IMG/VR virus record: IMGVR_UViG_3300034101_003795
Coordinates: 1 to 64,000 of that record
DNA from: a virus
DNA: 64,000 nucleotides
Reading direction: 5' to 3' (one strand)
Shown here: positions 11,314 through 38,179 of the stretch, one piece after another
Layout of the letters: each line of letters begins with the position of its first letter
How positions within the stretch are numbered: position 1 is the stretch's first letter
Notes under the pieces: model-generated
Told to the model about the DNA's origin: nothing
Seen by the model: the letters and a program-made list of their open reading frames with translations, nothing else
Databases searched by the model: none
Made by a program: the position numbers and the translations under genes

Positions 11314-14300
11314 ATGGCAGCATTTAATTTAACAGCACAACTTAATTTACAAGGTCCAACAAATCTTAGACCAGTAATATCAGCTATTAGAAGAGAGCTA
11401 TCCAGCTTAACCTTGGATTTAAATATTAATCCAAGAACATCTCAAGGAATAAGAAGTGTTACTGCTGATGTTAATCAATTAAGTACTGCTCTTAGAAATG
11501 CTCAAACTAATGCGGCCGCATTAAATACCCAACTTAGAACTTTAGTTAATACACTTAGTGCTGTTAGTAATACTGCCACCTCGGTAGCTACCGGATTAGG
11601 CACTATCAATAGGCAAATAAGTAATAATGCGAATGCTGCCCGACAAGCAGGGTCTGAAATGGAAGAGTTCGGTAGGCAATCAGCATTAGCAGTAAGACGT
11701 TTTGCTGCGTTTAGTGTTGCTACAGGGTCAGTTTATGCGTTAGTAAGAGCAATATCATCAGCATATACAGAGTTCGTTCAGTTCAACAAAGAGTTTGTAA
11801 AATTACAACAAGTAACAGATTCTACAGCGTCATCGTTAGGTTCGTTATCATCAGAAATCACAAGATTATCAACAAGCCTTGGCGTTAGTTCATCAGAATT
11901 ATTAAATGTTTCAACCACATTAGCACAAGCTGGCTTAACTGCTACTCAAACCAAAACAGCCCTACAAGCATTAGCCAGATCAGCACTTGCCCCATCTTTT
12001 GATAATATGAATGCTACTGTAGAAGGTAGTATTGCATTGATGCAGCAATTTGGTATTAGTACTGATAATTTAGAGTCTTCTCTTAGTTCTATCAATTCTG
12101 TTGCTGCTAAGTTCGCCGTAGAAGCCAGTGATATTATTACCGCTATTCAACGTACTGGTGGTGTGTTTGCTTCTGCTAGTAAGGGAGTAAGCGAAGGTAC
12201 TCAAGCATTAAACGAATTTATTGCTATTTTTACTAGCGTTAGAGCAACAACTCGTGAAAGCGCAGAAACTATTGCAACAGGATTAAGAACAATTTTTACT
12301 CGTATTCAAAGAGGATCAACTATTGATGCGTTGAAAGAATTCGGTATTAATCTAACAGATTTAGATGGTAAATTCGTAGGGGTATATGAAGGAACAAGAA
12401 GGCTTAGCATAGCACTAAAAGGATTAGATCAAAGAGATTTAAGATTCTCAAAAATTATTGAAGAACTCGGTGGGTTCCGTCAAATCGGTAAGGTTATTCC
12501 ATTAATTCAACAGTTCGCTCTTGCTCAGCAAGCGCTTGGTGTTGCTCAAAGAGGAGCAGGATCGCTAGCATCAGATGCCGCAAAAGCACAAGAAGCATTA
12601 TCTGTTAGAGTAACAAAGGTTCGAGAAGAATTTATTGCTTTAATCAGAGATATTGGCCAAACACAAAGTTTTCAAAGATTTGTTGATATATCTTTAAGCT
12701 TAGCTAGCGCATTAATCTCTGTGGCTAATGCGGCAAAAGAAGTTTTACCAGCAATAGCAGCTATTGGTGCGATAAGAGCAGTTCCAGCAATAGGACAATA
12801 TTTTAGTGGTGTCGCTAGTGGTTTAGGAGGAAGAAGAAGATTCGCTAGGGGTGGTATGGTTCCTGGAAGTGGTAGTGGAGATACTGTTCCTGCTATGCTT
12901 GAACCAGGAGAGTTTGTTATAAGAAAAAATGCTGTTAATGCTATTGGTTCTGATAATCTTCACAGAATTAATAGATATGCGTCTGGCGGAACAGTAAAAT
13001 CATTATTATCAGAGAAAGCTTTATTAGGGAAAAAATACGACACAGAAGAAGTAGAAGATTTGTATAGTAATATTAAAATAGATAGAAGTAATGCTAATAA
13101 ATTATCACAAACTAGAGAAGCCTATAGGGAAAAAGCCAAAGAAATATGGGATCAAGCATCCTCTGCTTACTCTTCTAGTGGATCTCTTTCTGGAGCTAAT
13201 AGACTAATAAAAACAAAAGTAGGACTGCCTCTTCCTTCTAAATTAAGTTCTACTGAATTAGCTAAAAATAATACTGATCCTCGAAGACTAAACAAAATTC
13301 AGGGGTCTTTAGCAGAAAAAGAAACTTATAATAGAGTTAATAATTTGAAACAGTTACCCAAAGAAGCTGGGCCTGATTTCTCTATTGGTGGATCAGCAAC
13401 TAGTTTTGTTGAGGTTAAAAATAGGAGAGCATATACATCAGATGATGATTTAAAAGCAAAAGCATTATTAGGTCATCAATATGTTACAAAAAAAAGCTAT
13501 CTTAACAAGAAATTAGACGAGGCTCCCGGATTAAAAATATCTTTATTTTCTAGTAATGAAAAAGATTTTCAAAGAGCACCAAAATATGCTTCTGGTGGAA
13601 ATGTAGACAGTGTTCCTGCGTTGTTAACTCCTGGCGAATTTGTTATTAATAAAAAATCTGCCAGCGCAATTGGATCATCAAGACTGCATCAAATGAATAG
13701 AGCAGATAAAATTCAAGGATTTAATAAGGGTGGATTTGTTGGAGTACAAAAATTTGCTGATGGCGGAGAGGTTGAAAATAATAATATCATGGGCTTTAGT
13801 CCTATGACTATAATAACTGCTCTTATTGGCATTACTGCTGGATTTGTTGGACTAAGTAGAGTTATTCCATCCCTTGGTAGAGCTATTGGGGTTTTTAATA
13901 GATCTGTTGATATGGGTCTTCCAAGAACAGGAAGAGGAACAGCAAGACCAGGACAACCAAACGCTGGCAGAAGAGATTTTACTGAACAAGGTAGCTTAGT
14001 AAGAAGAAGAGGCGTCCTTGGAATGGGTCAAGGGGCTGATGCTATTGGTTTAGCTTTTGGTGGTACTGCTGTAGCACAAAGCGCTGGTGAAAATATTGGT
14101 GGAACACTAGGTAAACAAGTTAGCGAAACTGGTACAGCAATAGCCAGTGTTCTTGGCCTTGCAGCAGCGATACCGGGATTGGCTAATCCATTAGGAATAC
14201 TAACTACTGTTGTAGTTGCTGGAATTGCAGCTTTTAGCGCTTGGAATAAAGCAACAAGAGATGCTGCTATCGCAGAACAAGAAAAAATAATAGAACAAAA

Positions 14301-17300
14301 GAGCAGTAGTCTTGATAAAGCATTTGAAAAATTAACCAATACCACTAATAATGTTAAGATTGGTGAACTACAAAGTAGTATATTGTCTAATGTCAAAGAT
14401 GTAATTTCTTCAGAATCTGCAATCAGAAAAGAAAAATCAACAGCCTCAGCACCTAGTTGGTTCACAAAAACCTTTTTTGGCGCTAAAACAGATACCACTA
14501 AACTAAGTCAAGAATTAACTAGTTCTAGTAAATTAAGTGGAGAGACATTACAAAGATACATAATAGATGCTTTAAGAAAAGGCCAAACGTTCTCTCAAGT
14601 ACAAGGACAACTTAGAAATAGTGGAATCAATGCTCAGGATATAAAACAATCAATTGCCATAGCTCAAGGTGGCACTGCTGTTACCGACATAATGGCAAAA
14701 ATTACTGCTGCCCAACAAGAAAATAGAACAGGAGATCTTCCTGGATTACAAAAAGAGTTAGACACTATAATAAATAAATTAGTTAAAGAGTTTAGTGATG
14801 GTGCTATAGCACTGACTACTATTAGTGGAACCGGAGCAGCAGCAGCGGCTGCTGTAGATCTATTTGCTCAAAGTATAAAAAATGTATCAGCGGCAATAGG
14901 AAGGGCTTCTGCTGAATTTGATGAAGCTGAAAGAACTGCATCAATTTTATCAGCAGCGCCAGGACAAGCACTTTCTGCGGCCGGACCAAGCAGGCTAAAC
15001 GAAAATATATTTGATAATTTAAGATCATATTCATCACAAGAAGTTGTTGATGCTATTAATAGTCTTGGAGAAAAATTAAAATTTAGTCAAGGTTTTACTG
15101 GCGATCTTACAACAGCAGCCCTTAGTAAACAAGTATTAGAAGTTGGATTACCAAAAATATTAGCAGAAGCAGCTGCAAAACAACAGACTGGACAATTTAA
15201 TGAGACTGATAAAAACAGTATCCAAAAATCTTTATTAGGCTTATTTAAAAATGTCCCATCTATGGATCAAAACAAAGCCGAACTAGCTGTCACAGAAATT
15301 CTAGATACTATTCAAAAAATGACTACAGAAGGACAATCTGTAACTTTGCAGTCTCTTTCTGATAGTAGCAAAGCTCTTAATGAAATATTAAAAGGATTTA
15401 CAGAAACAACAGATGCAGCAAAAAATGCTCAAGTAGAATATAATAAATTACTTGATCAAGGTCGTCAATCGTTAATTGGACTTATAGAAGCTACTGATAA
15501 AGCTAGTGATTTGAGAAATCAAGCAGCTTCTGTTAGAAATCAAGGATCGGTACAATTATCCCAGGCCTTAGGACAATCAGTATCTTTAAAGGAACTAAAT
15601 TCATCTTTTGAAAAAACAATACAAACACTAACATCAACTATTGGTCCAAAAGGTGTTGTAGCTGGTACTGGAACTAATGACCCCAATCAAATAGCAGCAA
15701 GATTAGCTAAAAAACAAAAAGAAGAGGCTGATCTTCGTCTAAAATTAGATCAAGCAAATGTTGGTACTAATGAATATAATGCTTTACGATCTTCATTAGC
15801 TAGAGTTACATTAGAAGCTAGAAATTTAAGTAAGGCCCAAGAAAAATTAGCAACAGATAGTAGCAGAGCTTCTAATGCATTATCAAAAATACAAGAAATA
15901 AGAAGAACACAAGAGGCAGGAAGAGGATTATTTGAGAATCTTTTAACTAATATTAATAATCCAGACTGGCTATTAGAATTTCAAAGAAGTGTACAGTCAT
16001 TAAGAAATGTTATGAGTGGCCAAGGAACTAGTGAAGATATACCATTAGCTATAGAAGCTTTTAGACAAAGAGCATCAACACTGCCAGAGGCTCAGGCCGA
16101 AGAAGAGAGAAAAGATTTTTATGCAAAACTTAGAGAAATTTTAATTAATAGTGGGATAACAAGTCCAAAAGTTATTGATGCTATTCTTAATAAAATTGGG
16201 GCCAAGGGAGAAACTCAAGAATTACAAGATACTATAAAAGTATATACCGATGCTGTGATTGCTCAAGCAACAGCTCTTGAAAATCAGGCCGCTCAAACTG
16301 AGAAATCTGGACAAACCTTTTTTGGTCTTGTGAAAAAGGCTGGTGAAAATTTTGTTGCTACTATTGGTGGTGCTGCTGGTGGCGCTGGTGGTCAGCCAGT
16401 GGTAGGAAGACAGAATGGTGGAATGATTTATGCTAGTAAAGGTCAGTATGTAAATTTTCAACCAAGAGGAACTGATACTGTTCCTGCTATGTTAACTCCG
16501 GGAGAGTTTGTTGTTAATAAAAAAGCCACACAAAAAAATATTGGGTTATTAAAAAATATTAATAATGGTGGTAAAGGTTATAGTTCGGGTGGAGTTGTTT
16601 ATGCTAGAACAGGAGGAGAAATATTATCAAGTTTAGGCGATGCTTCTGATGTTTTATTTGCTTGGGATCTTGAAGGAAAAGGAATACCAGAAGATCGGTT
16701 TGACTGGGCTGCTATGAAAATACAAAGGGCAACTGATGAACTTGAAGAGAAAAGTTCGCTTACAAGAAATATAAATGATGATTTTATAGTTCGTGAGTTT
16801 TCTGGTCCTTCAAGAAGATTTATCTCTAAATCTGGTGCAGAAATAGCAAAACTCAATGACGCAGATTTTAGTGCATATAGGATGCCATTTAATGATGCGT
16901 ACAATGATTTAAAACGTTCTGATATATTAAAATATATTGATGATATGACCGTGCCAGCGCCACAACCAGGACAACCTCCTGTTGCTCCACCGTCGCCGCC
17001 ACAAAAACCTCAAGGCGCAGGATTTACTCTTCCCCCAGAAGGAGGACTTGCCGGCCAATTATCTTCATCGGATTTTATGAGAATGGGTGATCCGATTACA
17101 CAAAATATCGAAGCTAGAAGAGCAAAAGCTTTAGCTATTTCTAAAGATAAAGCTAAAACAAACGCATTTTATGATGAGCAAAGAGACAAAAGAGCGAATT
17201 TTATAGATAATGCTCCTCTTGCAGTAAAGAGAAAATTATTTAAAGATATTACAGAATCAGAAGACAGAAAAGGTCAAAGACTAGAAGAAAAAGCAGCAAG

Positions 17301-20190
17301 AGATGCTAAATTTTTAGAAATTGGTAGATCCGAAGCACAGATCCATGATGATGGTGGGGTTATTCTTAATGGTAAATTTATTGCAGACCCTACAGATGCT
17401 CAATTAATAGCATTAGGAAAACAAAGAGAACAGGAAATGAGAGAATACAAGAATGACATAAAACAATATGTTTTATTAAACGAAGACCTATTAAATAAAG
17501 CAAAAGCTGAAGCTTCAGCATTAAAAGATAAAACTGGATCATATTCAGAAGCTGATATTGCTAAAACATTAGCAGGAGATCCGTATGGAATGGCATCACT
17601 AGCCGGAGCCGGATCCATATCAATAACAGAAGCTGATATTAGGCGAAAACCACTAGGATATGATAAATTATCTAAGGATAAGCAGAGTAATTATGACAAT
17701 TATGTTGATTATTTAATTGAATTTAAATATGAGTTTGCCCGACAATCTGCACTAGAGGCTAAAATAGCAAAAAGAAGAGAAGCAGAAGCAAAACAGCGAG
17801 CTGATTTAGTCAAAGCTGAACAAGCTAAAAAAGACGATCTTAAACGACGAACAACTCCTGTAGTGAGTGATGAACCAATAACATCAGGATTTGCTGGTAT
17901 GCCGGAAGACAATCCTGATTTAAGAATGCCAACATTAGCAGATGCTCAGGCAGCTGACTCACAGATTAGAGCAAAAGAAGAAAAACAAGCAAGAAGAGAA
18001 TACGTTGCTAGTAAAGTGGCAGAATTTGCAGAAAAGAAAGATAGAATATTAAGCGAACTCAGTCAAGTCAGAAGCAGAGCGCAAAGTGATATTGATACAA
18101 CTTATAATAATCAACAATCATCATCATTTAATGGCGTAGTTTCGTCTGTTACCGGATCTGATCCTTATGCTATGCAAATACAAAATGCCAGAAAATTATT
18201 AGAAAGAGCTGATTATCTAAAACAAGATTTTAATAAGAGATGGATAAGTCGCATTGATCTTGCTAAAGATGGTAGATCATATGGAACTAAAGAACAAGTG
18301 GATCAAAATATTTCTGATAATACCAGTTTGGCCGAAGAGTATTTTAATGTATTAAGAGCTGTAAGATCTGGCGAATCTTCTAATGCAGACTTTTTTAATA
18401 ATACAGTTTTACCACAACATAATGAAGCTATTAATACAACTAGAGATGTGGCCGCTCAAGCAATTGTCGGGGCTGGCACACTAGGAGTTGGTGCTGCTGG
18501 AACTGCTACTGTTAGAGGAGCAATGGCGCTAGGTGCTGCAACAGGAGCGGCAGAATCAGCAACACTATCAACACTATCCGCTATTGATCAAGTAAAATCA
18601 AAACAAAAAACAATAGGAGAAGCAGTAACTGATGTTGCCACACAAACTGTAATTGGTGGTGCTGTTGGTGCTGTTACTGGAGGAGCTGGTCAAGTTGGTG
18701 GAGCCGGAGCAAGAGCATTATCAAAAGCATATGACGCTACTGTTGAACAAAATGCAAAAATAGCAGCAAAACAAGCCAAAATAGCAGCAGAACAAGCACA
18801 AGAAGCTGCCTCCGCTCAAGCTCGAAAGAAAGCACAACAAAAAGCGGCACAAGCAGCTAAAGAAAGAGCCGAAAGACAAGCCAAAGAACAAGCATCTAAA
18901 GCACAGGAAAATTTTGGACAAAAAGCAGGAGAATCTCAAGACGAATATTTGGCTAGAATTAGTGGTCGAGCTGTTGGTCCAAAAGCAGCCGCACAAACAG
19001 CAGCAGCAGCAAAAGCATCAGGAAAAACTGGTGGATCCTCAAGCACAGCCCCAAGAAATCCAGATGCTAAATATCCAGGATTTAGTAAAAAACCAATAAT
19101 GGATTACGATCAAATTCCTACTGGTAAAACTGGTGGAACAACTTCTACTACAGTTGAAGATGTTGTTGGTCTACCAGGAAGCGCAGGAGGAGGAAGAGAA
19201 ACAATAGCCTATAAAAGATCCAAAGCAACAACAGCACAAGCACAAAAACCAGCAGAACCATTATTTTTCCCACAAAGAAACTCATCAGCTCAGATGAGAA
19301 CATTTAGGTTTAGAGAAGCAGGAATACCTCAGTCTAAAATGGATGATTTAGTTAGTAAATATTACACAAATAAAACTCTCTTATCAAAAGACGAACTTAG
19401 ATGGGTCCAAGATTTTCTAAAAGATCCAGATAATGTAGCAGGATTTAATTTTAGATCAAATAGGCCAACAGCAGCAATGTCAAGGGGCGGAGTGGTTTAT
19501 GCTTCAAAAGGCCAGTTAATTCCATATATGCCAAAAGGTACCGATACTGTACCGGCCATGTTAACTCCTGGCGAATTCGTAATAAATAGAGCGGCCACAC
19601 AAAAACATCTACCATTATTAAGAGCCATAAATAATAATAGTAATAATGTACAAAGATTTAGTGGCGGCGGCAGAGTACAATATTTTGATAAGGGGTCTAA
19701 AGGAGCAGTTCAAGCATCATCTGGCGGCGGAGGTGTATCAAATATAAGTTTAGATACTACTGGATTGAATGGTGCTTTTGGTTCTTTTTCTCAATATGTT
19801 GAGAATCTTAAAGGCTATATTGATTCTTTTGGAGTATCACTAACGAATATTGGATCATTATTAGGAAATCTTTCGTCCATAGAATCTGGAGCAAGCAAAT
19901 TATCAGTATCAGCAGCCTCTTTAAGTTCAGCATCATCAAGACTTAATGACGCAATGATTACTTTAAATTCTTCTCTAGGAACTTTGGGTCAAAGTTTATC
20001 TAATGTACCAAAAGTTATTGATTTTAACGCTACTGGAGAAATACCAATTAATATTTCATTAGATGTTAATGGTGGTCAAGGATTAAATGATCAGCTATCT
20101 AAATTTGAAGATGATATATATACTAAAATAGAAAATGAATTGCGTAGAGCATTACCAGGTATTAATATAAACATAACTAGAAGTACATAA
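11314..20190 (+). CDS. Tail tape measure protein with internal repeat-bracketed insert regions
   Basis: 2958 aa. TP901-type TMP core (LAQAGL..., KFAVEASDIITAIQRTGG..., RESAETIATGLRTIFTRIQR), Ala-rich helical regions, hydrophobic segments, four DTVPAML(T/E)PGEFV-type motifs. Confidence 0.9.
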   Translation: MAAFNLTAQLNLQGPTNLRPVISAIRRELSSLTLDLNINPRTSQGIRSVTADVNQLSTALRNAQTNAAALNTQLRTLVNTLSAVSNTATSVATGLGTINRQISNNANAARQAGSEMEEFGRQSALAVRRFAAFSVATGSVYALVRAISSAYTEFVQFNKEFVKLQQVTDSTASSLGSLSSEITRLSTSLGVSSSELLNVSTTLAQAGLTATQTKTALQALARSALAPSFDNMNATVEGSIALMQQFGISTDNLESSLSSINSVAAKFAVEASDIITAIQRTGGVFASASKGVSEGTQALNEFIAIFTSVRATTRESAETIATGLRTIFTRIQRGSTIDALKEFGINLTDLDGKFVGVYEGTRRLSIALKGLDQRDLRFSKIIEELGGFRQIGKVIPLIQQFALAQQALGVAQRGAGSLASDAAKAQEALSVRVTKVREEFIALIRDIGQTQSFQRFVDISLSLASALISVANAAKEVLPAIAAIGAIRAVPAIGQYFSGVASGLGGRRRFARGGMVPGSGSGDTVPAMLEPGEFVIRKNAVNAIGSDNLHRINRYASGGTVKSLLSEKALLGKKYDTEEVEDLYSNIKIDRSNANKLSQTREAYREKAKEIWDQASSAYSSSGSLSGANRLIKTKVGLPLPSKLSSTELAKNNTDPRRLNKIQGSLAEKETYNRVNNLKQLPKEAGPDFSIGGSATSFVEVKNRRAYTSDDDLKAKALLGHQYVTKKSYLNKKLDEAPGLKISLFSSNEKDFQRAPKYASGGNVDSVPALLTPGEFVINKKSASAIGSSRLHQMNRADKIQGFNKGGFVGVQKFADGGEVENNNIMGFSPMTIITALIGITAGFVGLSRVIPSLGRAIGVFNRSVDMGLPRTGRGTARPGQPNAGRRDFTEQGSLVRRRGVLGMGQGADAIGLAFGGTAVAQSAGENIGGTLGKQVSETGTAIASVLGLAAAIPGLANPLGILTTVVVAGIAAFSAWNKATRDAAIAEQEKIIEQKSSSLDKAFEKLTNTTNNVKIGELQSSILSNVKDVISSESAIRKEKSTASAPSWFTKTFFGAKTDTTKLSQELTSSSKLSGETLQRYIIDALRKGQTFSQVQGQLRNSGINAQDIKQSIAIAQGGTAVTDIMAKITAAQQENRTGDLPGLQKELDTIINKLVKEFSDGAIALTTISGTGAAAAAAVDLFAQSIKNVSAAIGRASAEFDEAERTASILSAAPGQALSAAGPSRLNENIFDNLRSYSSQEVVDAINSLGEKLKFSQGFTGDLTTAALSKQVLEVGLPKILAEAAAKQQTGQFNETDKNSIQKSLLGLFKNVPSMDQNKAELAVTEILDTIQKMTTEGQSVTLQSLSDSSKALNEILKGFTETTDAAKNAQVEYNKLLDQGRQSLIGLIEATDKASDLRNQAASVRNQGSVQLSQALGQSVSLKELNSSFEKTIQTLTSTIGPKGVVAGTGTNDPNQIAARLAKKQKEEADLRLKLDQANVGTNEYNALRSSLARVTLEARNLSKAQEKLATDSSRASNALSKIQEIRRTQEAGRGLFENLLTNINNPDWLLEFQRSVQSLRNVMSGQGTSEDIPLAIEAFRQRASTLPEAQAEEERKDFYAKLREILINSGITSPKVIDAILNKIGAKGETQELQDTIKVYTDAVIAQATALENQAAQTEKSGQTFFGLVKKAGENFVATIGGAAGGAGGQPVVGRQNGGMIYASKGQYVNFQPRGTDTVPAMLTPGEFVVNKKATQKNIGLLKNINNGGKGYSSGGVVYARTGGEILSSLGDASDVLFAWDLEGKGIPEDRFDWAAMKIQRATDELEEKSSLTRNINDDFIVREFSGPSRRFISKSGAEIAKLNDADFSAYRMPFNDAYNDLKRSDILKYIDDMTVPAPQPGQPPVAPPSPPQKPQGAGFTLPPEGGLAGQLSSSDFMRMGDPITQNIEARRAKALAISKDKAKTNAFYDEQRDKRANFIDNAPLAVKRKLFKDITESEDRKGQRLEEKAARDAKFLEIGRSEAQIHDDGGVILNGKFIADPTDAQLIALGKQREQEMREYKNDIKQYVLLNEDLLNKAKAEASALKDKTGSYSEADIAKTLAGDPYGMASLAGAGSISITEADIRRKPLGYDKLSKDKQSNYDNYVDYLIEFKYEFARQSALEAKIAKRREAEAKQRADLVKAEQAKKDDLKRRTTPVVSDEPITSGFAGMPEDNPDLRMPTLADAQAADSQIRAKEEKQARREYVASKVAEFAEKKDRILSELSQVRSRAQSDIDTTYNNQQSSSFNGVVSSVTGSDPYAMQIQNARKLLERADYLKQDFNKRWISRIDLAKDGRSYGTKEQVDQNISDNTSLAEEYFNVLRAVRSGESSNADFFNNTVLPQHNEAINTTRDVAAQAIVGAGTLGVGAAGTATVRGAMALGAATGAAESATLSTLSAIDQVKSKQKTIGEAVTDVATQTVIGGAVGAVTGGAGQVGGAGARALSKAYDATVEQNAKIAAKQAKIAAEQAQEAASAQARKKAQQKAAQAAKERAERQAKEQASKAQENFGQKAGESQDEYLARISGRAVGPKAAAQTAAAAKASGKTGGSSSTAPRNPDAKYPGFSKKPIMDYDQIPTGKTGGTTSTTVEDVVGLPGSAGGGRETIAYKRSKATTAQAQKPAEPLFFPQRNSSAQMRTFRFREAGIPQSKMDDLVSKYYTNKTLLSKDELRWVQDFLKDPDNVAGFNFRSNRPTAAMSRGGVVYASKGQLIPYMPKGTDTVPAMLTPGEFVINRAATQKHLPLLRAINNNSNNVQRFSGGGRVQYFDKGSKGAVQASSGGGGVSNISLDTTGLNGAFGSFSQYVENLKGYIDSFGVSLTNIGSLLGNLSSIESGASKLSVSAASLSSASSRLNDAMITLNSSLGTLGQSLSNVPKVIDFNATGEIPINISLDVNGGQGLNDQLSKFEDDIYTKIENELRRALPGININITRST
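12838..12990 (+). repeat. TMP motif copy 1 (RFARGGMVPGSGSGDTVPAMLEPGEFVI...RYASGG)
   Basis: Protein- and DNA-level similarity to copies 2-4. Confidence 0.85.
13582..13770 (+). repeat. TMP motif copy 2 (KYASGGNVDSVPALLTPGEFVI...KFADGG)
   Basis: Shares TGTTAACTCCTGGCGAATT with copy 4. Confidence 0.85.
16405..16620 (+). repeat. TMP motif copy 3 (GGMIYASKGQ...GTDTVPAMLTPGEFVV)
   Basis: Shares GATACTGTTCCTGCTATG with copy 1 and YASKGQ with copy 4. Confidence 0.85.
19477..19700 (+). repeat. TMP motif copy 4 (GGVVYASKGQ...GTDTVPAMLTPGEFVI)
   Basis: Near-identical in protein sequence to copy 3. Confidence 0.85.
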
Positions 20191-20204: not shown

Positions 20205-23200
20205 ATGTCAATTAAATATTATGCAAACAGAGTTCAAGAAACAACCTCCGGAACAGGAGCTAGTAATTTAGTATTATCTGGATCTCCAACAGGATATAGA
20301 AGATTTAGTACCACGATTGGGCCAGATAAAACAATCACATATTATATATATCGTTCAGATAATGCCTTTGAGTGGGAGATTGGAACAGGCTATATTCTTA
20401 GTAATGGTGGAATTGACCAATTAGTAAGACAAAAAGTATCATCTTCTAGTAGTGCTGGTTCTTTTGTTAATTTTAGTGCCGGAACAAAATATGTTGAGAC
20501 AATTATTAGTGATGATAGAGTAAATACATCTTTCCAAAACGTAGAAGAAAAATCATCTAGTTTTACAGCAGCATATATTCCGACTACGTATATAGTCAAT
20601 TCTTCTTCTGGAAATGTTCAAGTATCATTACCAACAGTAATAAGTCAAGAACCAATAATACTTGGATTCTTGCTAACTGCAACATCTGGTAATGTTTATT
20701 CTCAGACAGATGCTATTAAATTGATGCCTAATGGTGTTGAAACTATTAATGGATTATCTTCAAAATCATTATCTATAAAATCAGACTACTTACAAATAGC
20801 TTCAATTCCATCAAAAAGCGGATGGATAGTTTTAGATCCTATACAAGATTCAACCAATCCTTATGGTTCAGATGGGACAATTCAATTTGCACAAAGTCAA
20901 TCATTTAGCGGTGTTAGCGCATTATCTTGGGATTATTCCTCATCATCTTTATTAATCGGGGGCAGTGGACTAGCATCAGCAGATAATATTATTTCTACAT
21001 CAACTCTAACAACAATATTTAATGAGCAATCACGAGATAAAGACTTTAGAATAGAGGGTAGTGGTACTACTCATATGTTTTTTGTTGATGCTAGTTTAAA
21101 TAGAATAGGAATAAACACATCATCTGTTACAGACACACTAACAGTACAGACCCCACCAAACCTCGGAATCAGATTAAACGCTAGTGGTTTAGGCCCAACT
21201 ATAACTTTAGTTAATACTAGTCCTAGTGGTTTATCGACAAATTCTCGTATAGGATCCATAGTATTTTCTGGATTAAATTCTAGTGGATCATCAATAGAAT
21301 ATGGACGCTTGTATGGTAAAATAATATCAGCAACATCAAATGCTGAAAATTCTTCTATAATATTAGAAGTACTTAATAATGGTACAAAAAAAGAAGTTTG
21401 CTCTCTAACTCCTAGTGGAGTAACACTAGGATTTAATAACTCTAATACTAATGGTATATTATTAGGCGGTGCTAGTAGTAATGAAGGAGATAATATAGTA
21501 TTAGGTTATTATAATAATGCTTGTGGATCTAACTGTGTTGTTATTGGTAATGATTCTAATGTGGCATCAGGAACATTTGGTGGGGCGATAGGAAGAACAA
21601 TAGCTCTTTCGGGATCTAATGTTTGGGTATTTGGTGGTTCTGGAGTATCTCTGAGCGGATCTAACGCCACATATTTAGCTCTTAATAACGATAATCACAT
21701 AGATATAAAAGGATCAGGACTCATAGAATATAATACAAAAACTGACGGAGATACAGTATTAAAGATTAAAAATAATAGAGTATTATCTAGTGGAGTTAAA
21801 GAGTCATTATCTTTTGAGTTCCAAAATGTCGGAGGTAGTAAAACCGGAGTATTACTAACGTCAGACTTAGTTTCTGTAACAAATGGTAGTGAGAACTCAT
21901 CATTAACTAGTAAAATTTTAGTAGATGGAGCTAGTACAGAGATCTTAAGATTACAAAAATCAAAAATATTAATTGGATCAAATACTAGTTCTGGTAATAA
22001 TTTATCTATAGGTTTATCAAATACTATTTATAGTACTGGTAATATTATTTATGGTAATAATATTTTAACTAGTGGAACTAATAATGTTATTGTTGGATCA
22101 AATTTACAGGCTTCTGGAAATAATATTTCAATATTTGGATCTAGTAATACGTGTTTAGTTTCTGGAAATTTAGGAGTTGTAATTTTTGGTAACAGTAATT
22201 CGGCTAATGAGGATTATGCTGTTTCACTAGGATCAAACAATTCTAGTAGCGGATTATATTCTGTTGCTTGTGGTTATTTAAATGGAGCACACGGAGCTTA
22301 TTCTGTTGGAATTGGCTCGAATAATACAGTAGTTAGTAAAGCATCCGTGGCAGTGGGTCGAAGTAATTCTATTAATAGTTCAGATATAGACGCTTCAATA
22401 TTTGCTGTTGGTATAGGTAATAATGTTAATATAAATGGCAGTGGCACAGTTATTGGTCATTATAATCAACTATATGGATCTGGTGGTTTAGTTATTGGAA
22501 AAGGTTGCGTGTCTTCTGGATTAAATAATATTGTTATTGGCAATACCAATAATGTGTCTGGTAGTAATAATTTTATATTTGGTAATAACATTAATTGGTC
22601 TGGTTCTAACACAACAATTTTTGGTGGATCATCATTAAATATTGTTTGGAGCGGATCATCATATGTGAACGCAACAGTGGCTGGCAGTCATAATACTTTG
22701 ACCACTAGTAGTGGAGTATATATAAATAGCACTTCTGGAGTATATGTTTCTGGTAATGTAATTAGTTTAACTAATAGTACAAATAATAGAATAAATATAT
22801 CATCTACTGGAGTAGAATTATATGGTTCTGGAACTTTGGCTCTTAGAAGTGGCCCCTCAGGATCCGTAACATTATCAACATCCGGAATTAATTATACTAA
22901 TTATCCAACCGCTACTGGAGTTGGAACTAGTCTTGTTATTGAGAATAATACCATAAAGGCCGCTACTAGTTCGGAAAGATTTAAAGAAAATATTAGACCA
23001 TATGATAAAGGACTAAATACGTTACTACAAATTAATCCAGTGTATTTTAATTATAAGAATAGTAATGTTCCTAGGGCCGGCTTGATAGCTGAATCAATCA
23101 GCGAATTAGGATTGAATGAATTTGTTTCTAAAGATGCTAACGGACAAATAGAAAGTTTAGACTATGGATCTATGATAGTTGTCTTAATTAATTCTATTAA

Positions 23201-23240
23201 AGAACTTAAACATCAACTGGATATTATTAATAATAAATAA
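20205..23240 (+). CDS. Trimeric tail fibre with YadA-like head repeats and C-terminal peptidase S74 intramolecular chaperone
   Basis: N-terminal YANRVQETT.GTG..L.L.G anchor; repeated (S/N)xxIGxxN units; C-terminal SSERFKENI...INPVYFNY...GLIAE...LDYGSMIVVLINSIKEL. Confidence 0.8.
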   Translation: MSIKYYANRVQETTSGTGASNLVLSGSPTGYRRFSTTIGPDKTITYYIYRSDNAFEWEIGTGYILSNGGIDQLVRQKVSSSSSAGSFVNFSAGTKYVETIISDDRVNTSFQNVEEKSSSFTAAYIPTTYIVNSSSGNVQVSLPTVISQEPIILGFLLTATSGNVYSQTDAIKLMPNGVETINGLSSKSLSIKSDYLQIASIPSKSGWIVLDPIQDSTNPYGSDGTIQFAQSQSFSGVSALSWDYSSSSLLIGGSGLASADNIISTSTLTTIFNEQSRDKDFRIEGSGTTHMFFVDASLNRIGINTSSVTDTLTVQTPPNLGIRLNASGLGPTITLVNTSPSGLSTNSRIGSIVFSGLNSSGSSIEYGRLYGKIISATSNAENSSIILEVLNNGTKKEVCSLTPSGVTLGFNNSNTNGILLGGASSNEGDNIVLGYYNNACGSNCVVIGNDSNVASGTFGGAIGRTIALSGSNVWVFGGSGVSLSGSNATYLALNNDNHIDIKGSGLIEYNTKTDGDTVLKIKNNRVLSSGVKESLSFEFQNVGGSKTGVLLTSDLVSVTNGSENSSLTSKILVDGASTEILRLQKSKILIGSNTSSGNNLSIGLSNTIYSTGNIIYGNNILTSGTNNVIVGSNLQASGNNISIFGSSNTCLVSGNLGVVIFGNSNSANEDYAVSLGSNNSSSGLYSVACGYLNGAHGAYSVGIGSNNTVVSKASVAVGRSNSINSSDIDASIFAVGIGNNVNINGSGTVIGHYNQLYGSGGLVIGKGCVSSGLNNIVIGNTNNVSGSNNFIFGNNINWSGSNTTIFGGSSLNIVWSGSSYVNATVAGSHNTLTTSSGVYINSTSGVYVSGNVISLTNSTNNRINISSTGVELYGSGTLALRSGPSGSVTLSTSGINYTNYPTATGVGTSLVIENNTIKAATSSERFKENIRPYDKGLNTLLQINPVYFNYKNSNVPRAGLIAESISELGLNEFVSKDANGQIESLDYGSMIVVLINSIKELKHQLDIINNK

Positions 23241-24718: not shown

Positions 24719-26170
24719 ATGGCTAATGATACTGTAAAATTAGGTGGAATCTCTTTAATTCCAGCACCATCTGTGAGTACCAGCTACGAATATAGTAAGA
24801 GTGGTGACTATATTATTGGGGGATTTTTAATAGTAACATTAAGTGGTAAAATTATTAGTGAAAGTGTTCTATCTGAATTAAATAGTATTTCTCAATTATC
24901 AGCTGGTAATAATTGTATATCTTTAAATATAGGTTGTAATGGTGGAGAGTTTTTAAGCGGAGCATCTGGCAAGATAAGATCCGCAGACGTTTCTATTGAT
25001 GATCAACCATTCTTAGGTAGTTATACTATACAAGTGGCAGTAGAGACAATAGATGGAAAGCCAGCTGTTGCTCCAGATAGTCAGTTTTTAAAATCTACAT
25101 GCTTATCTAATGCAGAATATATACAAAGCTATACTGAAAGTATTGGAATTAATGCCGACGCAAACTCTATTGGTCTTGTTGATGACGCTACTGGACTATC
25201 AAAAAGTTTTATTAAAGCGAATGGTCAAATTACGCTTGTTGGATTGTGTACGTTGATTTGTGGGAAACCAGAATTTACTACTATAGATAGTTTAGTAGGT
25301 ATTTTACGAACAAGAGCAGATAGTTTATTAGGATTACAAGCTTGTGAAGGATCAATATTGTCTTCGTACAATGGATGGAACAAGTGGATAGATACTCAAA
25401 CCTTAGATGTTAATAGTGCAACAGGTACAATAACATGGTCTTTTGATATGTATATGAGTCAAGGAAGCTTAGCTCCGTATGCGTGGGCTGATGTTACAAT
25501 AGAAGATAAATATGATCAAAAAAAAAGACTACAAACCAAAACTATGAGTGGAACAATTAGAGGTTTATCAACTTCTAGCGGTAGTTTTCTTGGAAATAAA
25601 CTAACGTCTGGTGAAAGGTTAGGTAACGCAAAAAAGGGTTATAATTTAGTAACAGGCATGTTGATGAGTGGTGGATGGCCATCCGATGGAAATATTATTA
25701 GTGGCGGAGAAGGAAATTGTACTTCAGCAGACGACCCATGTAAAAATCCAGTAGAAGCAACATGCTTACAAAGAATTAGTAGTAATGTAACAACATCTGT
25801 AGTTAATGGGGAAATATCCTTTTCTTCTGAATTTGGAAGCATAAGTGCCTGTAAGCCTAATCAAGAATCACAAATTGACGTTACTGTTGATGAAACTCTT
25901 CCTGCTGTTAGATATGTAGAAATTTTTGTTCCTAATGGTCGCAAATCAACAGTGGTTAATATTGGAGATACACCTGGCAAAGTAACAATAATGGGTAAAG
26001 GAACATTAAAAGGGTGCGATACTACACAAATGGGAAAAATGAAAAATTGTGTACAGGCTGAAATTTCTAAAGCACTTGGTCTTTATAGAGGGTGGCTGAA
26101 AGTCAAAGAGAACGAAAGTTTTGGAAGCTATTCTTATAGTAAAACTCTGGAGTATATAAGATGTGGCTAA
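24719..26170 (+). CDS. Baseplate/distal-tail-like structural protein B (paralogue of A)
   Basis: PSVSTSYEYSKSG..IIGG...TLSG; SGTI.GL; G.I.FS.E.G; nearly identical length (482 vs 483 aa). Confidence 0.45.
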   Translation: MANDTVKLGGISLIPAPSVSTSYEYSKSGDYIIGGFLIVTLSGKIISESVLSELNSISQLSAGNNCISLNIGCNGGEFLSGASGKIRSADVSIDDQPFLGSYTIQVAVETIDGKPAVAPDSQFLKSTCLSNAEYIQSYTESIGINADANSIGLVDDATGLSKSFIKANGQITLVGLCTLICGKPEFTTIDSLVGILRTRADSLLGLQACEGSILSSYNGWNKWIDTQTLDVNSATGTITWSFDMYMSQGSLAPYAWADVTIEDKYDQKKRLQTKTMSGTIRGLSTSSGSFLGNKLTSGERLGNAKKGYNLVTGMLMSGGWPSDGNIISGGEGNCTSADDPCKNPVEATCLQRISSNVTTSVVNGEISFSSEFGSISACKPNQESQIDVTVDETLPAVRYVEIFVPNGRKSTVVNIGDTPGKVTIMGKGTLKGCDTTQMGKMKNCVQAEISKALGLYRGWLKVKENESFGSYSYSKTLEYIRCG

Positions 26171-27372
26171 CATCTGGGAAAACATATTCTGATTTAGTAT
26201 CTAATGCTAATTCTTTTGTTACTGTTGGAGATACTGGAAATCCAGCATATAGTGGAACTGTTGGAGTATTAGGTAACGTTGATTATACTTATCAGATATC
26301 TAAATACGAAATTACACATCGTGAATATGTTTTATTTTTAAATAGTGTAGATCCTTTTGGAATTGATCCTAATGATATATATGATCCTCTTATTGGAAGA
26401 GGAATATTTATGGATAACACCAGAGTTGCTGGATATAGATATTATTTATCAGATGAAGTTTTTAATAATAAACCAGTAACTTATATAAGTTTTAGTAGAG
26501 CGGTAAGATTTTGTAATTGGTTACATAATGGTGGTAAAAGATATAAGGTTTCAGACTACACAGCTACCGCACCACAAAATATCGGAGCATATAATATTGG
26601 CGTAGAAACGATTAATTATGTGGCTCCTATTAATAATGCCACATTCCGATTACCAACATACTCAGAATGGTTCAAGGCGGCATATTATAATGGTAGTGGA
26701 GCATACAACTCATACGCAACCCAATCTAATATCGCTCCAGGACAGGTGTCTGCTTACAGTAACGGAGATGGATATTATCAGCCTTTAAACTTATTATCAA
26801 ATCTAGAATTAGACATATTAACAAATAATAATAGTCAATTTAATGTCACAAACAACAATATTTCAAACTTACAATTTGATATATTAAGAAATGATATTTC
26901 TGTACATAATAGAATTTCAAATCTAGAATTAGACATATTAAGTAGTAATAATAATAATAATGGTATAACAAATAATCATATTTCAAATCTACAATTTGAT
27001 ATATTAAGCAATAATTTAGTTTTAATAAATAATATAATGTCATACTCACAATTTGATATATTGTGTTGTTCCCCACCAATCATATATAACAGCCTTAATT
27101 CTTCATCACTACAGAATGATATATTTTTGTCTACCACAAATAGTAAGTATTTAGAAAATATAATCACTTATCATAATTATGATATTTTAACTTCATCGGC
27201 TAGTTCATATAGTAGTAATTTATCGAACTTTCAAATAGACATATTATCGTCAAATAAAACTATAAATACGCAAATATTAATGTTAAATATAGACTGTTTA
27301 TGTTCAGAAAATAAAAAATATCTAATTAACAGTATATCGGTTTACGATGTTTTATGTAACAAAAAAAGTTGA
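26161..27372 (+). CDS. Virion protein: N-terminal half of an FGE/SUMF1-type (C-type lectin fold) domain fused to SNLxxDIL repeats
   Basis: FVTVGDTGN..VDYTYQISKYEIT..EY..FLNSVDP..KPVTYIS...AVRFCNWLHNG..FRLPTYSEWFKAAYY..YATQSN.AP..NGDG; lacks the YG.YD..GNV.E and GFR end. Confidence 0.75.
   Translation: MWLTSGKTYSDLVSNANSFVTVGDTGNPAYSGTVGVLGNVDYTYQISKYEITHREYVLFLNSVDPFGIDPNDIYDPLIGRGIFMDNTRVAGYRYYLSDEVFNNKPVTYISFSRAVRFCNWLHNGGKRYKVSDYTATAPQNIGAYNIGVETINYVAPINNATFRLPTYSEWFKAAYYNGSGAYNSYATQSNIAPGQVSAYSNGDGYYQPLNLLSNLELDILTNNNSQFNVTNNNISNLQFDILRNDISVHNRISNLELDILSSNNNNNGITNNHISNLQFDILSNNLVLINNIMSYSQFDILCCSPPIIYNSLNSSSLQNDIFLSTTNSKYLENIITYHNYDILTSSASSYSSNLSNFQIDILSSNKTINTQILMLNIDCLCSENKKYLINSISVYDVLCNKKS
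26797..27355 (+). repeat. About 10 degenerate S-x-x-x-x-D-I-L repeats in Asn-rich spacers
   Basis: SNLELDIL, SNLQFDIL, SNLELDIL, SNLQFDIL, SYSQFDIL, SSLQNDIF, TYHNYDIL, SNFQIDIL...; DNA TCAAATCTAGAATTAGACATATTA at 26797 and 26917 (120-nt period). Confidence 0.8.
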
Positions 27373-28686: not shown

Positions 28687-31600
28687 ATGGTTTCTCCAGG
28701 AAATAATACATCAAACTATAGTAGTAAAGCTGTTTGGAGTGGATCGTCGGCAAAACCAACTACGGTTGGTACAAATGGTGGTCCAAGCTATTATGGAACC
28801 TATGATCAAGATGGAAATGTAAGCGAAATTGTACTAGGAAGTTTCCCTAATACTGGAACACCAGACTCTAATGCATTTCCCTACGGGGCTGGCGGAAACT
28901 TTTTCAGTAGTGCTGTTGGAAGAAATGTAAATTATTTTACTAACTTTGGAGCGAATTTAAATTCTGGTGGTTTTAGGCTCGTAGCAAAAGAATATACTAA
29001 TATACAAATTTCATCTGTTAGTCCAGAATTTTTTAATCCTAATTCCGGTATTGTTCAATCTTTTTATATTAATAATTATGAAAATTTTCCTATTACTGGA
29101 CTACAGATATCAGGATATTATAAAAATATTCTTAATCCAGTATGGTCTGGTTCATACGATCCATCATCATCTGGTACAATAAGCGGCACAGGGAACATAT
29201 TAATAAATTGTACTCTTGGATCTAGTGGCAGTTTAATTATTAACTTTAGTGGAATTCCTAAATCTGGACTTTCTATATTATCTAATAGAATAACATTATA
29301 TACTTCAAATAATTATAATCTACAACAAAATTATTATAAGATTAGTAGTACAATTTCATCAGATAATGAAATTAATAGTTTGAATTACCAGCATAAATTT
29401 TCTCAACTTAATTGGGGTAGTATAAGCCCTAATTCTTTTGTTGTGGTTGACGATATAGGAAATTCAAATGCTTTTGATGTTTATCAAAATAATTTAGGAT
29501 CATATGTAGGAGGAGTAAATTATTATTATAATATTACTAAATATTACATCACAAATAATGAATATTGTTTATTTTTAAACAGCGTGGATCCACAAGGAAC
29601 AAATCCACAAAATATTTATTCCACATACGTACCAAATACAATAACTTATTCATCTGAAAATATTAATGGCAACAAATATAGTGTTATAACTTCAGGATAC
29701 AATAGAGGGAATAAACCAATAGATAATATTCCAGTAGCAAATATGTTGCGATATTGTAATTGGTTACATAATGGAGGCAAAAGATATAATACAACATCAT
29801 CTGGAATTTCTGCACCACAAAATACCGGTTCTTATAACGTTGGTACTGGTGTGAATGTTCTCCCAACGATACCACAGGGCACAGGAAGATTTAGACTACC
29901 AAATGCTCACGAGATAACCAAAGCATCTTATTACAGAGGTAGTGATGGTATTTATTGGAATTTTGGAACAAAAACAAATAGTGCTCCACTAAGCGCTGGT
30001 ATACATGCTCCAACAAGAGATAGTCAGCTACCTAGTGGAGTTAGTGGATTAGAATTACGACAATCATATAATACTGCAAATTTTGGTACTGCATTAACAA
30101 CAGCAGGAACTAATGGCGCTTCAAGTCCATATGGATTATATGATGTTGAAGGTTCTGTTATGGAAGTAACTCATCACGGAAGCAATTTTTTTGCTATGCG
30201 CAATTCGTCATGGAGGAGCACCACAACAATAGCCAGACTGAACTCACTTTTATTTGTTAGCGTGGCAAATATTGATACAGAATTTAATGCTGGGTATGCT
30301 TATGGTTTCAGAGTAGTATCTAGTGGATTGATAGGCGATATCGGTTTAGATTTAGAAAGTGCGGGAATTTATTATAATCAATCAATCCCTATTGAAGCAA
30401 CAGCAACAATAGAAAATAGTTTCAATATTCCAAGTACTTTTTCAGTTCTTTTATCAGTATCTGGACAAAATACTAGTCCTGGATATTGGACACCTTATTA
30501 TTTTAATGGAGCTACTGGACCAAATGTAGTTCAAAATAATATAGGGTCTAGTATATCGTTACCATCAGATGATAGTAAAGTTATATTTACTTTAGCTGGC
30601 GCCACGCCAAATGAAGTAGCAACAACTCCAATAGTTATAAATGGAACCATTACTCCTATTGGTTTTGGTGATCTATCATTAGAAAATAATAGTGATAGTA
30701 TTATTAAATATATTGATCCACAGACAAATCTAGGAGTATCAATAACAGGATCTCAAGTGGTAAACAAGGGAGAGAATATAAGTTATGATATAATAGTAAG
30801 TAATACTGGTAGTAGTTATGTTAGTGGTATAAATCTGTCTACTAATATATCTCCATTAAATAATATTAATTACAGATGGAACCAAGATCTTAGCCGTAGC
30901 ACATCATCTATAGTGTCAGTTCCGCCATCAGGAACTGGAAATATAGTATCAAATATTTCGCTTTTACCAAATACGTATTCTATATTTAGTATAAGTGGTT
31001 TAGTTACTAATACTTATTATCCTATAACAGCATATTCTAGCATTAGTGTTACGGGAAATCAGAGTGGATTTAAGGAGAGCAGCGCATCAACATCGTTTGG
31101 GCCAACAGATCTACAAATAAGATATACCGGGATTCCAATCTACCATTCTGATGGACAATTTGTAAATTATAAAATATTAATTACTAATTCTGGTAGTAAC
31201 GATTCTATAAATTCAAGATTCTTTCATAACTTTACTAGTTTATCTGGTATAAATTGGTCAATTGTTTATGGACCATCATCAACTGGAATAACTAATGGAT
31301 CAGGAATTATTGACGCTTATATCCTTTTAGGATCAAACAGTAGTGCTACCATTAATGTAGATGGTATAGCTAGTAACTCAAAGTATGGGGATATATTATT
31401 AACATCATCTATCACACCAACAGTAATTACTGATAGTAATTTATCAAATAATACTGCAATTATTAATATACCTCATAGTATAGCTATAAAAAATATCAAG
31501 TATAGTGAGAATAGTTGTGATAATAATGGTTATATTACCATTGGAATAACTGGAGGAATACCACCATATTCATATACTATCAATAATGAAACAATATCTT

Positions 31601-37262: not shown

Positions 37263-37301
37263 TATATAGTGATTATTTACATCTAAAATTTTTAAGAAAT
37301 A

Positions 37302-37847
37302 TTATGCTAATGAAAAACCTTTTTCTGGCACATTAGTTCTACCATCATATTCACAGATACTTATTGAACCGGGTGTTTGCCAAGCACTAGAGGTATACAT
37401 GTCAACGCTTGACCAAGCCATACGATAATTTTCAAATTGCGATTGAGGATACACAGAACGCCAATTAACGTTATTTATTATGGTTGGTCCTTTTACAACA
37501 ACAAATGGATCTCCGACATAATTTGTGGCCGCATACAGGCAAGCAACAAAACCATCTTTTATGGCAATTGAATCAAAAGAACCGGCAATCGCCCGTGGAA
37601 AAGAGTTAGAGGCTATATCATAACATCCGGCGTCAAGAATATCCATGTAAACCCTCGGGCAACAACAAGAATTAAATGGCTGATCTGATTGACCGCCTAC
37701 GCATAGACCACCCATTAAGGCTCCGCTTGCACAAAAAACCCTAGGAACTTTACGTCTATTGCCTTTACAACCAAAACACTTACAGCCTTTTTTACAAAAA
37801 CAGTCATACGCACCAAAAAATAAACCTCCTTTAGTAAAACTAGACAT
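37302..37847 (-). CDS. Cys-rich protein with beta/gamma-crystallin-like motif
   Basis: CFCKKGCKCFGC and SCCCP; FDSIAIKDGFVACLYAATNYVG resembles the crystallin Greek-key signature; TAATG coupling to the upstream gene. Confidence 0.45.
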   Translation of the reverse strand: MSSFTKGGLFFGAYDCFCKKGCKCFGCKGNRRKVPRVFCASGALMGGLCVGGQSDQPFNSCCCPRVYMDILDAGCYDIASNSFPRAIAGSFDSIAIKDGFVACLYAATNYVGDPFVVVKGPTIINNVNWRSVYPQSQFENYRMAWSSVDMYTSSAWQTPGSISICEYDGRTNVPEKGFSLA

Positions 37848-38167
37848 TACTTATCCTTACTCCATTTGTGCCAACCCTTATTTGATAAGTAATTTCCTTC
37901 GTCATCTTTTCGCTTTGGGAATAAAGTGCCACCCTTTTTGTGTTGTCCAAATCCTAGGATTGCCCCACAATCATTACATCGTAATTCATAATAGTCATTC
38001 CCGTCAACATTTCTAACAACAAAACGAATATTATCTTTGCCACACAAACCACACTTTTCTTCACCAAAAATTTCTTGAATTAGGGCCAATTCTTTAAAAA
38101 TTTCTTTTTGGCCTGCTCCTTCTAATTCAAAAGCTAATTTATTATTGATATTATATATAACTTTCAT
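37847..38167 (-). CDS. Zn-ribbon hypothetical protein
   Basis: CGLC...CNDC; AGGAGA RBS. Confidence 0.6.
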   Translation of the reverse strand: MKVIYNINNKLAFELEGAGQKEIFKELALIQEIFGEEKCGLCGKDNIRFVVRNVDGNDYYELRCNDCGAILGFGQHKKGGTLFPKRKDDEGNYLSNKGWHKWSKDK

Positions 38168-38179
38168 AATATTCTCCTA

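Follow-up and report, generated by a model that had tools for sequence, protein, structure and literature searches.

Repeated lambda gpH-type modules and exchangeable segments in a giant phage tape measure protein

Why does one phage tape measure protein (TMP) carry the same short motif four times, and what lies between the copies? The question is raised by IMG/VR virus record IMGVR_UViG_3300034101_003795 (91,952 bp, estimated completeness 66%), of which the first 64 kb, called the window here, were analyzed (G+C content ~32%). The TMP, referred to as P0001, is encoded there by a single open reading frame (ORF) of 2,958 amino acids (aa). An initial annotation had proposed that the motifs delimit swappable passenger domains. 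The results given below indicate that P0001 is probably a modular giant TMP, with exchangeable segments that are bounded by repeated modules of the type present in lambda gpH.

By its profile matches, P0001 is a TP901-type TMP. Residues 181-385 match Pfam PhageMin_Tail (PF10145; E value 3.7e-23, 82.9 bits against a cut-off of 33.2), and the protein matches TIGR01760 tape_meas_TP901 (E 2.3e-22, 79.5 bits against a cut-off of 28.8). A weak TMP_N match was also obtained, and several PHROG tail length tape measure families were matched. Hydrophobic membrane-type windows (Table 1) and helix-prone runs were located using sequence heuristics.

The regular expression D[ST]VPA[ML]L.PGEFV gave exactly four matches in P0001, at aa 523, 765, 1721, and 2744 (nucleotides [nt] 12880, 13606, 16474, and 19543), and each core is bracketed by two xxxGGx[VILM] elements (aa 510/555, 758/803, 1699/1756, and 2722/2782). 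The four copies listed in the initial annotation are therefore the same ones; its positions 12838, 13582, 16405, and 19477 are the upstream xxxGGx[VILM] elements. A profile of 119 module sequences found only these four sites in the whole 91,952-bp record, with E values of 6e-23 to 2e-31. Self-BLAST of P0001 with default settings listed no internal repeats; the copies were found using the regular expression and the profile. Chance recurrence of the core, or a recent duplication or assembly artifact, is hardly credible and was rejected: the expectation from the amino acid composition of P0001 is ~1e-11 matches, the copies are 69-84% identical over 51 nt with codons that vary between them, and the same four positions are retained in relatives at 84-86% and at ~40% identity. 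Module 2 is kept as DTVPSLL in the relatives P0002 and P0003. The copies do share exact DNA tracts as had been noted, one of 18 nt in copies 1 and 3 and one of 19 nt in copies 2 and 4. The suggestion that these tracts serve as recombination anchors was dropped because such tracts are expected where identical peptides use partly the same codons.

Alignment of 563 copies from 120 related proteins gave a module of ~55 aa followed by Gly-rich sequence, with the consensus GG(V/I)(V/I)YA..G...N(F/Y).P(K/R)GTDTVPAMLTPGEFV(V/I)N(K/R)KA......L...INNG. Across the 563 copies, each position of the 13-residue core is conserved at 82-100%. Within ~55-75 aa, the module has one GG element on each side, with the core DTVPAMLxPGEFV and then a short helix in between. 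No Pfam or NCBIfam family was found for the modules or for the inserts between them, even at an E value of 10; PHROG 35029 (function not assigned) contains the module. When the module profile was searched against all PDB chain sequences, it matched lambda gpH at residues 719-791 (E 6.3e-5), gp16 of mycobacteriophage Douge at two places (aa 958-1029 and 1409-1472, E 1e-10), and, weakly, a third TMP, 8vjh_Q; T5 pb2 was not matched. In lambda gpH, the module reads FATGGFTGTGGKYEPAGIVHRGEFVFTKEATSRIGVGNLYRLMRGYATGGYV and adjoins an upstream hydrophobic Gly-rich stretch, so that the order is Gly-rich hydrophobic stretch, then FATGG...GEFVFTKEATSRIG...YATGG. Profile comparison shows the module to be homologous to lambda gpH 719-791 and to the two Douge gp16 copies. 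The Pfam family Tape_meas_lam_C spans gpH 627-701 only and thus misses the module, and TIGR01541 spans gpH 472-813, yet it has no match to P0001. The core was also seen outside annotated tape measures, in a protein annotated as lysozyme/endolysin of Synechococcus phage S-SCSM1 (MK867354.2, 164286-164345) and in a "bacteriophage-related transmembrane protein" of Synechococcus phage S-SM2 (GU071095.1, 7695-7844).

For the isolated module, AlphaFold2 with the 119-sequence alignment gave an extended core plus one helix with a mean predicted local distance difference test (pLDDT) score of 66.8. At this score, the module is not an autonomous fold, and its likelier role is that of a joint or of a partner-dependent peptide.

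The search for relatives covered 5.8 billion proteins and gave 1,719 matches at E ≤ 0.001 among 8,000 scored candidates. P0001 and its top 120 matches, which are TMPs of 2,289-5,166 aa, made up the 121 proteins examined, and 116 of these giant TMPs have four to seven modules. P0001 is colinear throughout with only two of the top 120 (84-86% identity); the remaining top matches have homology over the first ~560 aa at 53-75% identity. In IMG/VR, a search with the whole TMP found no close relative, and a scan gave at least 516 further matching stretches, of which 77 loci were fetched; most of these have giant ORFs that contain 2-6 modules. Annotated TMPs of cultured phages also have the motif; examples include Clavibacter phage CN1A, Stenotrophomonas phage Jojan60, Pseudanabaena phage Pan1, and the Nodularia phages (vB_NpeS-2AV2, kac65/68), the last with the motif at two places each. 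P0001 is one member of a large family of giant TMPs of uncultured aquatic tailed phages.

The modules fall into three subtypes. Subtype A (VPGxGxGDTVPAMLEPGEFVIRK...YAxGG) is the first module in 107/120 proteins, subtype B (...DTVPALLTPGEFVINKK...NKADKIQGF) is the second module in 69/120, and subtype C makes up 209/210 of the middle modules and 114/120 of the last ones. The modules are therefore not equivalent, because the subtypes go by position. In the window, the order is A, B, C, C. For the common plan, all proteins were cut at the modules and the pieces were clustered. The plan begins with an N-terminal domain of ~500-600 aa, module A, a variable segment of 133-2,700 aa, and module B. These are followed by a central scaffold of ~880-1,250 aa, module C, and a large variable segment of ~800-1,300 aa that belongs to one of several sequence families. 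Another module C (at times with more variable segments and C modules) and a conserved C-terminal block of ~100-240 aa complete the protein. In P0001, the central scaffold is colinear with relatives at 33-41% identity; across the family, this scaffold is 880-1,250 aa long. The C-terminal block is presumed to be the tail-tip-binding end by analogy with the lambda, T5, and Douge structures.

The homology breaks between P0001 and its relatives fall at the modules. In BLAST, the aligned ranges of P0001 were typically 1-~570, ~757-~1768, and ~2722-2958, with nothing aligned across insert 2, the segment between modules 3 and 4. Closely related pairs of proteins gave the clearest cases. The segments of P0044 and P0045 are 93-100% identical with one exception: between modules 4 and 5, the two proteins have unrelated segments, of 636 and 633 aa. 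The same pattern was found for P0082/P0086 and P0026/P0027, where the modules persist as islands of identity and the breaks lie within ~40 aa. P0044 and P0029 have 63% identity in this segment but only 33-36% in their central backbone segments. At the DNA level, homology of the IMG/VR locus pairs L057/L069 and L066/L069 ends at or within ~50 nt of module 1; for L057/L066, the break is ~250 nt upstream of it. Near-identical pairs and DNA breaks at modules together argue that module-bounded segment exchange is real in this family, as judged by sequence comparison. Separately, segment family cluster 14 occurs twice in P0004, at differing inter-module positions, and segments can therefore duplicate or move within a TMP.

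Insert 1, between modules 1 and 2, is a globular domain. Its length (187 aa) and that of insert 2 (946 aa) agree with the ~200 and ~950 aa estimated initially. The AlphaFold2 model is compact and has a mean pLDDT of 96.1 and a predicted template modeling score of 0.88, with helix 101-119, strands 123-125, 134-136, and 142-144, helix 155-170, and short strands after these (alpha-beta-beta-beta-alpha). E113 is the same in all 22 sequences aligned, and D133, E145, and K147 are conserved at ≥90%. The order of the elements in the model is that of a PD-(D/E)xK core, and, as read from the secondary-structure string, the conserved residues fall in the elements where such a core has them. Insert 1 is accordingly described as a genuine globular domain, specific to TMPs and bearing a nuclease-like E-D-ExK signature; by the signature and the element order, it may have a restriction-endonuclease fold. 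The fold searches gave no match: Foldseek returned no hit at E ≤ 0.001 from PDB or BFVD, and VIA-align (wide, second look) gave nothing above noise, with a best Z of 5.2 that covered only the helical part, residues 38-120, and barely the beta core. No Pfam nuclease family was found at E ≤ 10. In the ESM Atlas, the nearest named clusters were Tox-REase-7 at a weak score of 0.86.

The distribution of insert 1 is narrow. Its profile, searched against 1.84 billion cluster representatives, gave 20 matches at E ≤ 0.001, all TMP-like; most are giants of 2,400-5,400 aa, three are short entries, and the match starts at aa 500-820 in each. A metagenome scan with the insert 1 alignment gave one contig only, L007. 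The domain is found in giant TMPs alone and always right after the first module, so the idea of cargo borrowed from other carriers was not upheld. For both inserts, the polymorphic-toxin hallmark of tips that are common to other carriers or occur as stand-alone cassettes was not observed.

A commoner domain of the A-B slot, IEGALFE...DFPxGLG...PTDAKRT, is present in ~91/121 relatives; the P0001 type reads IQGSLAEKE...AGPDF...FVEVKN. Membership of insert 1 in the common type was considered and rejected: there was no hidden Markov model link, hhalign gave a motif register only at P ~0.01, and some relatives carry both. The two types were treated as distinct on sequence grounds, possibly with distant kinship, and they may be paralogues that share the E-D-ExK pattern. 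In P0029, P0038, and P0054, an insert 1-type domain lies right after module A, and the IEGALFE...DFPxGLG...PTDAKRT domain lies further on. One relative, P0065 (4,114 aa), has an ADP-ribosyltransferase (ART) domain (PF03496) at aa 1303-1513 in the A-B slot, at 26.8 bits against a cut-off of 23.4, and this ART domain adjoins a family-wide E...DF...ExK-type domain. In a Pfam scan of 12 diverse relatives, only PhageMin_Tail, this one ART, and a weak EF-hand match were found, and no peptidase family.

Insert 2 differs in character. It is 30-40% charged (K, R, D, and E) with a mean hydropathy of -0.7 to -1.0, as against ~20-25% charged residues in the central scaffold, which bears out the initial remark on its composition. 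A small N-terminal region containing aromatic residues is followed by a proline-rich linker, three Pro/Gly-free charged runs of 66-69 aa, a Gly/Ala-rich hydrophobic zipper-like stretch (~aa 2378-2470; nt 18445-18723), an Ala/Gln/Lys helix, and a low-complexity tail. Insert 2 gave no Pfam family and no enzyme or toxin signature, nothing usable in the ESM Atlas, and no homologues among proteins of 520-1,656 aa. In profile-profile comparison, it is colinear with distal-segment family c5 (98%), related to c14 (91%), and unrelated to five others. By these comparisons, it looks like an extra TMP-like unit and not like enzymatic cargo.

Module homology, repetition, positional subtypes, segment exchange, and the globular insert 1, each seen directly in the data above, carry the reading of P0001 as a modular giant TMP. 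Module A comes after the N-terminal TMP domain, module B before the membrane-spanning central scaffold, and modules C around the distal segments. The N-terminal domain, central scaffold, and C-terminal end would be the ruler and channel parts, and the A-B and C-C stretches are exchangeable slots that are replaced wholesale among related phages. In this phage, the first slot holds the TMP-specific globular domain and the second the 946-aa charged helical segment with its glycine-zipper stretch. We infer that the modules are flexible joints, which would allow each unit to fold and evolve apart from its neighbors. In lambda, the Gly-rich stretch that is cut directly precedes the module, and in T5 the cut follows a hydrophobic stretch; by analogy, the modules may also be sites of maturation cuts, in which case the protein would exit the tail in several pieces. 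The initial proposal of swappable passenger domains held up in part: exchange is module-bounded, insert 1 is globular, and one relative has an ART, but insert 2 has no enzyme or toxin signature and the closest relatives are colinear.

Several points weigh against the modular reading. P0001 and its two closest relatives show no swap in that lineage, although in the family at large the scaffold and motifs are conserved and the segments variable as had been predicted. The examples of swaps are metagenome-assembled proteins that were compared as protein sequences, and the lack of similarity across insert 2 between distant relatives could stem in part from rapid divergence of low-complexity sequence and not from replacement. 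The isolated module has no confident fold in AlphaFold2. The enzyme-bearing giant TMP of P23-45 is full-length in virions (PMC10770324), the cut site of lambda gpH is unmapped (PMC12617516), which makes the adjacency of cut and module in lambda approximate, and cleavage of multi-module TMPs is argued by analogy. Since giant TMPs can go with very long tails, as in P23-45 (PMC10770324), the inserts may count toward tail length.

Cleavage could be given a larger role. The modules would then be maturation cleavage signals of a TMP polyprotein that is cut after tail assembly or on ejection; channel pieces and strain-specific accessory proteins (nuclease-like, ADP-ribosylating, or membrane-inserting) would enter the host before the DNA, with the payload reshuffled at the modules. 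We regard this, too, as an analogy and hold it only tentatively. In the full form proposed by the initial annotation, every module is a cleavage site and every segment a passenger effector that is released with the DNA and is polymorphic among strains, which we consider doubtful. Segment exchange at the modules, the globular and nuclease-like insert 1, the ART domain of P0065, the cutting of lambda and T5 TMPs near comparable sites, the published injected TMP-borne enzyme of P23-45 gp96 (PMC10770324), and the concept of polyvalent injected proteins (PMC5512222) are consistent with it. However, insert 2 and most family segments have no recognizable enzyme domain in the 12 diverse relatives scanned, and inserts 1 and 2 are confined to giant TMPs, unlike polymorphic-toxin tips. 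Other than the Peptidase_S74 chaperone domain encoded downstream, no peptidase domain was found in P0001 or in the neighboring genes scanned, and the P23-45 TMP is uncut in the virion. The lengths of the distal slots cluster at ~800-1,300 aa, which is more like a length constraint than free cargo. That constraint on segment length fits the opposite account, which overlaps the modular one: a pure ruler and channel, with all 2,958 residues lining a very long tail (~440 nm if helical) and the modules serving as assembly registers (tail chaperone, tube, tip binding, or oligomerization knots). Segments would then vary through weak constraint and recombination and would play no effector role. Very long tails are indeed found with giant TMPs, as for the 5,002-aa TMP and "extremely long tail" of P23-45; insert 2 is helix-prone and its glycine-zipper stretch is like ordinary TMP membrane segments (PMC10240207); a module without an autonomous fold is what would be seen for a partner-binding peptide; and the positional subtypes suggest position-specific partners. 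A purely structural role seems rather unlikely all the same, as insert 1 is a compact alpha/beta domain and not an extended helix, P0065 has an ART domain, and in mature lambda virions the gpH region with the module (~690-817) is disordered and hence makes no stable structural contact there.

The modules might also cut themselves. The hairpin of LexA and signal peptidases (S24/S26) has the pattern G-[DN]-S-M-x-P-x-L-x-x-G-D-x-V, and D-[ST]-V-P-A-M-L-x-P-G-E-F-V resembles it, with a Thr/Ser as the would-be nucleophile; this is a resemblance only, without a profile match. The protease of lambda gpH has not been identified, and a core that is almost invariant (98-100%) over 563 copies is in keeping with a catalytic or recognition site. 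Self-cleavage is nevertheless judged very improbable because the core is followed by no conserved Lys or alternative general base (K makes up 35-54% at the best positions), the AlphaFold2 model has no beta-hairpin, and no Pfam or NCBIfam peptidase family was matched even at an E value of 10. In addition, the module has ~55 aa as against >100 aa for an S24 domain, and lambda has E-P-A and Douge S-D-S-M-L-A in place of D-T-V-P-A.

Parts of this architecture have been published. Lambda gpH matures to gpH* and gpHC by a cut in a glycine-rich region, the exact site and protease not being known (PMC12617516; PDB 8IYK). The gpH fragment that includes the module region stays in the virion, where gpH ~690-817 is unresolved (PMC12617516). 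Like P0001, gpH has the module match at 719-791 and the order of Gly-rich hydrophobic stretch, FATGG, GEFV core, helix, and YATGG. Unlike P0001, with its four copies and positional subtypes, gpH has one diverged copy (EPAGIVHRGEFV) near the C-terminus of its 853 aa and no inserted globular domain. Douge gp16 (PDB 8ZDO; PMC13033339) has two module copies in a TMP of 1,699 aa, so a cultured phage already has more than one copy, but these are diverged (SDSMLARVSNGEFITR). Only residues 1658-1699 of gp16 were resolved, and the module was not discussed (PMC13033339). Gp96 of Thermus phage P23-45 is likewise a giant TMP (5,002 aa) that carries a tail-delivered enzyme, in a phage with an extremely long tail; its enzyme, a virion RNA polymerase, is N-terminal, the protein is full-length in virions, and no segment exchange was described (PMC10770324).

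The cut in T5 pb2 follows R1127 and separates a hydrophobic stretch from a peptidase domain (PMC10038345). Its layout of hydrophobic stretch, cut, and accessory domain is comparable to the hydrophobic stretch, module, and insert 1 of P0001. The TMPs of T5 (pb2) and of mycobacteriophage TM4 have an accessory enzymatic part with embedded cell-wall hydrolase motifs (PMC10038345; PMC1796659), but each has one accessory domain, of a known muralytic type. Polyvalent proteins (Iyer et al. 2017, PMC5512222) are large and virion-delivered, combine several conflict-related domains, ARTs and nucleases among them, and are believed to be split into units by processing. They are defined by zincin-like MPTase peptidase domains, and the word "tape" occurs 0 times in PMC5512222; P0001 and the 12 relatives have no peptidase domain, and the delimiters are gpH-type modules. 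TMPs with embedded enzymes (TM4, T5 pb2, and P23-45 gp96) and injected multi-domain polyvalent proteins (PMC5512222) are therefore already on record. In the literature searched, no description was found of the gpH-type module, of its repetition, or of a role as exchange boundary. Searches with the core peptide string gave nothing relevant, and searches that combined tape measure with polyvalent, polymorphic toxin, ART, or nuclease domain gave no such architecture.

Table 1. Features of the TMP gene P0001 and of its surroundings in the window
Feature	Position (nt)	Strand	Description
TMP gene, P0001	11314..20190	+	Single ORF, 2,958 aa
N-terminal TP901-type TMP block, aa 1-500	11314..12813	+	Conserved; hydrophobic aa 456-495 at its end; 55-75% identity across ~120 giant TMPs
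Junction module 1, subtype A	12823..13017	+	FARGG...GDTVPAMLEPGEFVIRK...YASGG; profile E 2.4e-24
Insert 1 (S1), aa 556-742	12979..13539	+	Compact globular domain (AlphaFold2 model); E113-D133-E145xK147 signature (S1 numbering)
Junction module 2, subtype B	13561..13779	+	YASGGNVDSVPALLTPGEFVINKK...NRADKIQGFNKGG; profile E 5.9e-23
Central scaffold	13780..16401	+	Conserved; two hydrophobic glycine-rich membrane-type segments (aa 825-854, 939-978) and ~700 aa helix-prone
Junction module 3, subtype C	16402..16623	+	NGGMIYASKGQYVNFQPRGTDTVPAMLTPGEFVVNKK...SSGGVVYA; profile E 5.4e-31
Insert 2 (S3)	16624..19461	+	946 aa; characterized by composition, Pro/Gly-free runs, and profile-profile comparison
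Junction module 4, subtype C	19453..19701	+	SRGGVVYASKGQLIPYMPKGTDTVPAMLTPGEFVINR...FSGGGRV; profile E 1.7e-31
C-terminal block, ~160 aa	19702..20190	+	Conserved; segment cluster 1, in nearly all relatives; 37-45% identity to distant relatives
Protein directly 3' of the TMP	20205..23240	+	1,011 aa; Peptidase_S74 domain at aa 922-967, E 3.4e-7
Virion-module protein	26161..27372	+	FGE-sulfatase-type domain
Virion-module protein	28687..33567	+	1,626 aa; FGE-sulfatase-type domain
Skew change	~37300..38200		GC skew and AT skew flip sign

The surroundings of the gene are listed with its parts in Table 1. The genes upstream of the TMP gave zero family matches. The protein directly downstream ends in a C-terminal Peptidase_S74 intramolecular chaperone domain and is probably a self-cleaving tail fiber or spike. 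Two proteins of the virion module have FGE-sulfatase-type domains, and the larger of them has weak DUF11 and SprB repeat matches as well, which suggests an adhesin assembled from bacterial surface-protein domains. All ORFs go from the + to the - strand at ~37.3 kb, and the flip in skew and strand is where the structural arm meets the replication arm.

Of all phage proteins, TMPs enter the cell first. How and where lambda gpH is cut, and for what purpose, is still not known (PMC12617516). The sequence by the lambda cut is an ancient and very strongly conserved module, common to lambda, a mycobacteriophage, and aquatic phages, that has no separate Pfam entry. In thousands of giant TMPs, this module is repeated and marks the borders of exchanged segments, which suggests that tail-delivered accessory proteins may be commoner and more exchangeable than the few published single cases indicate.

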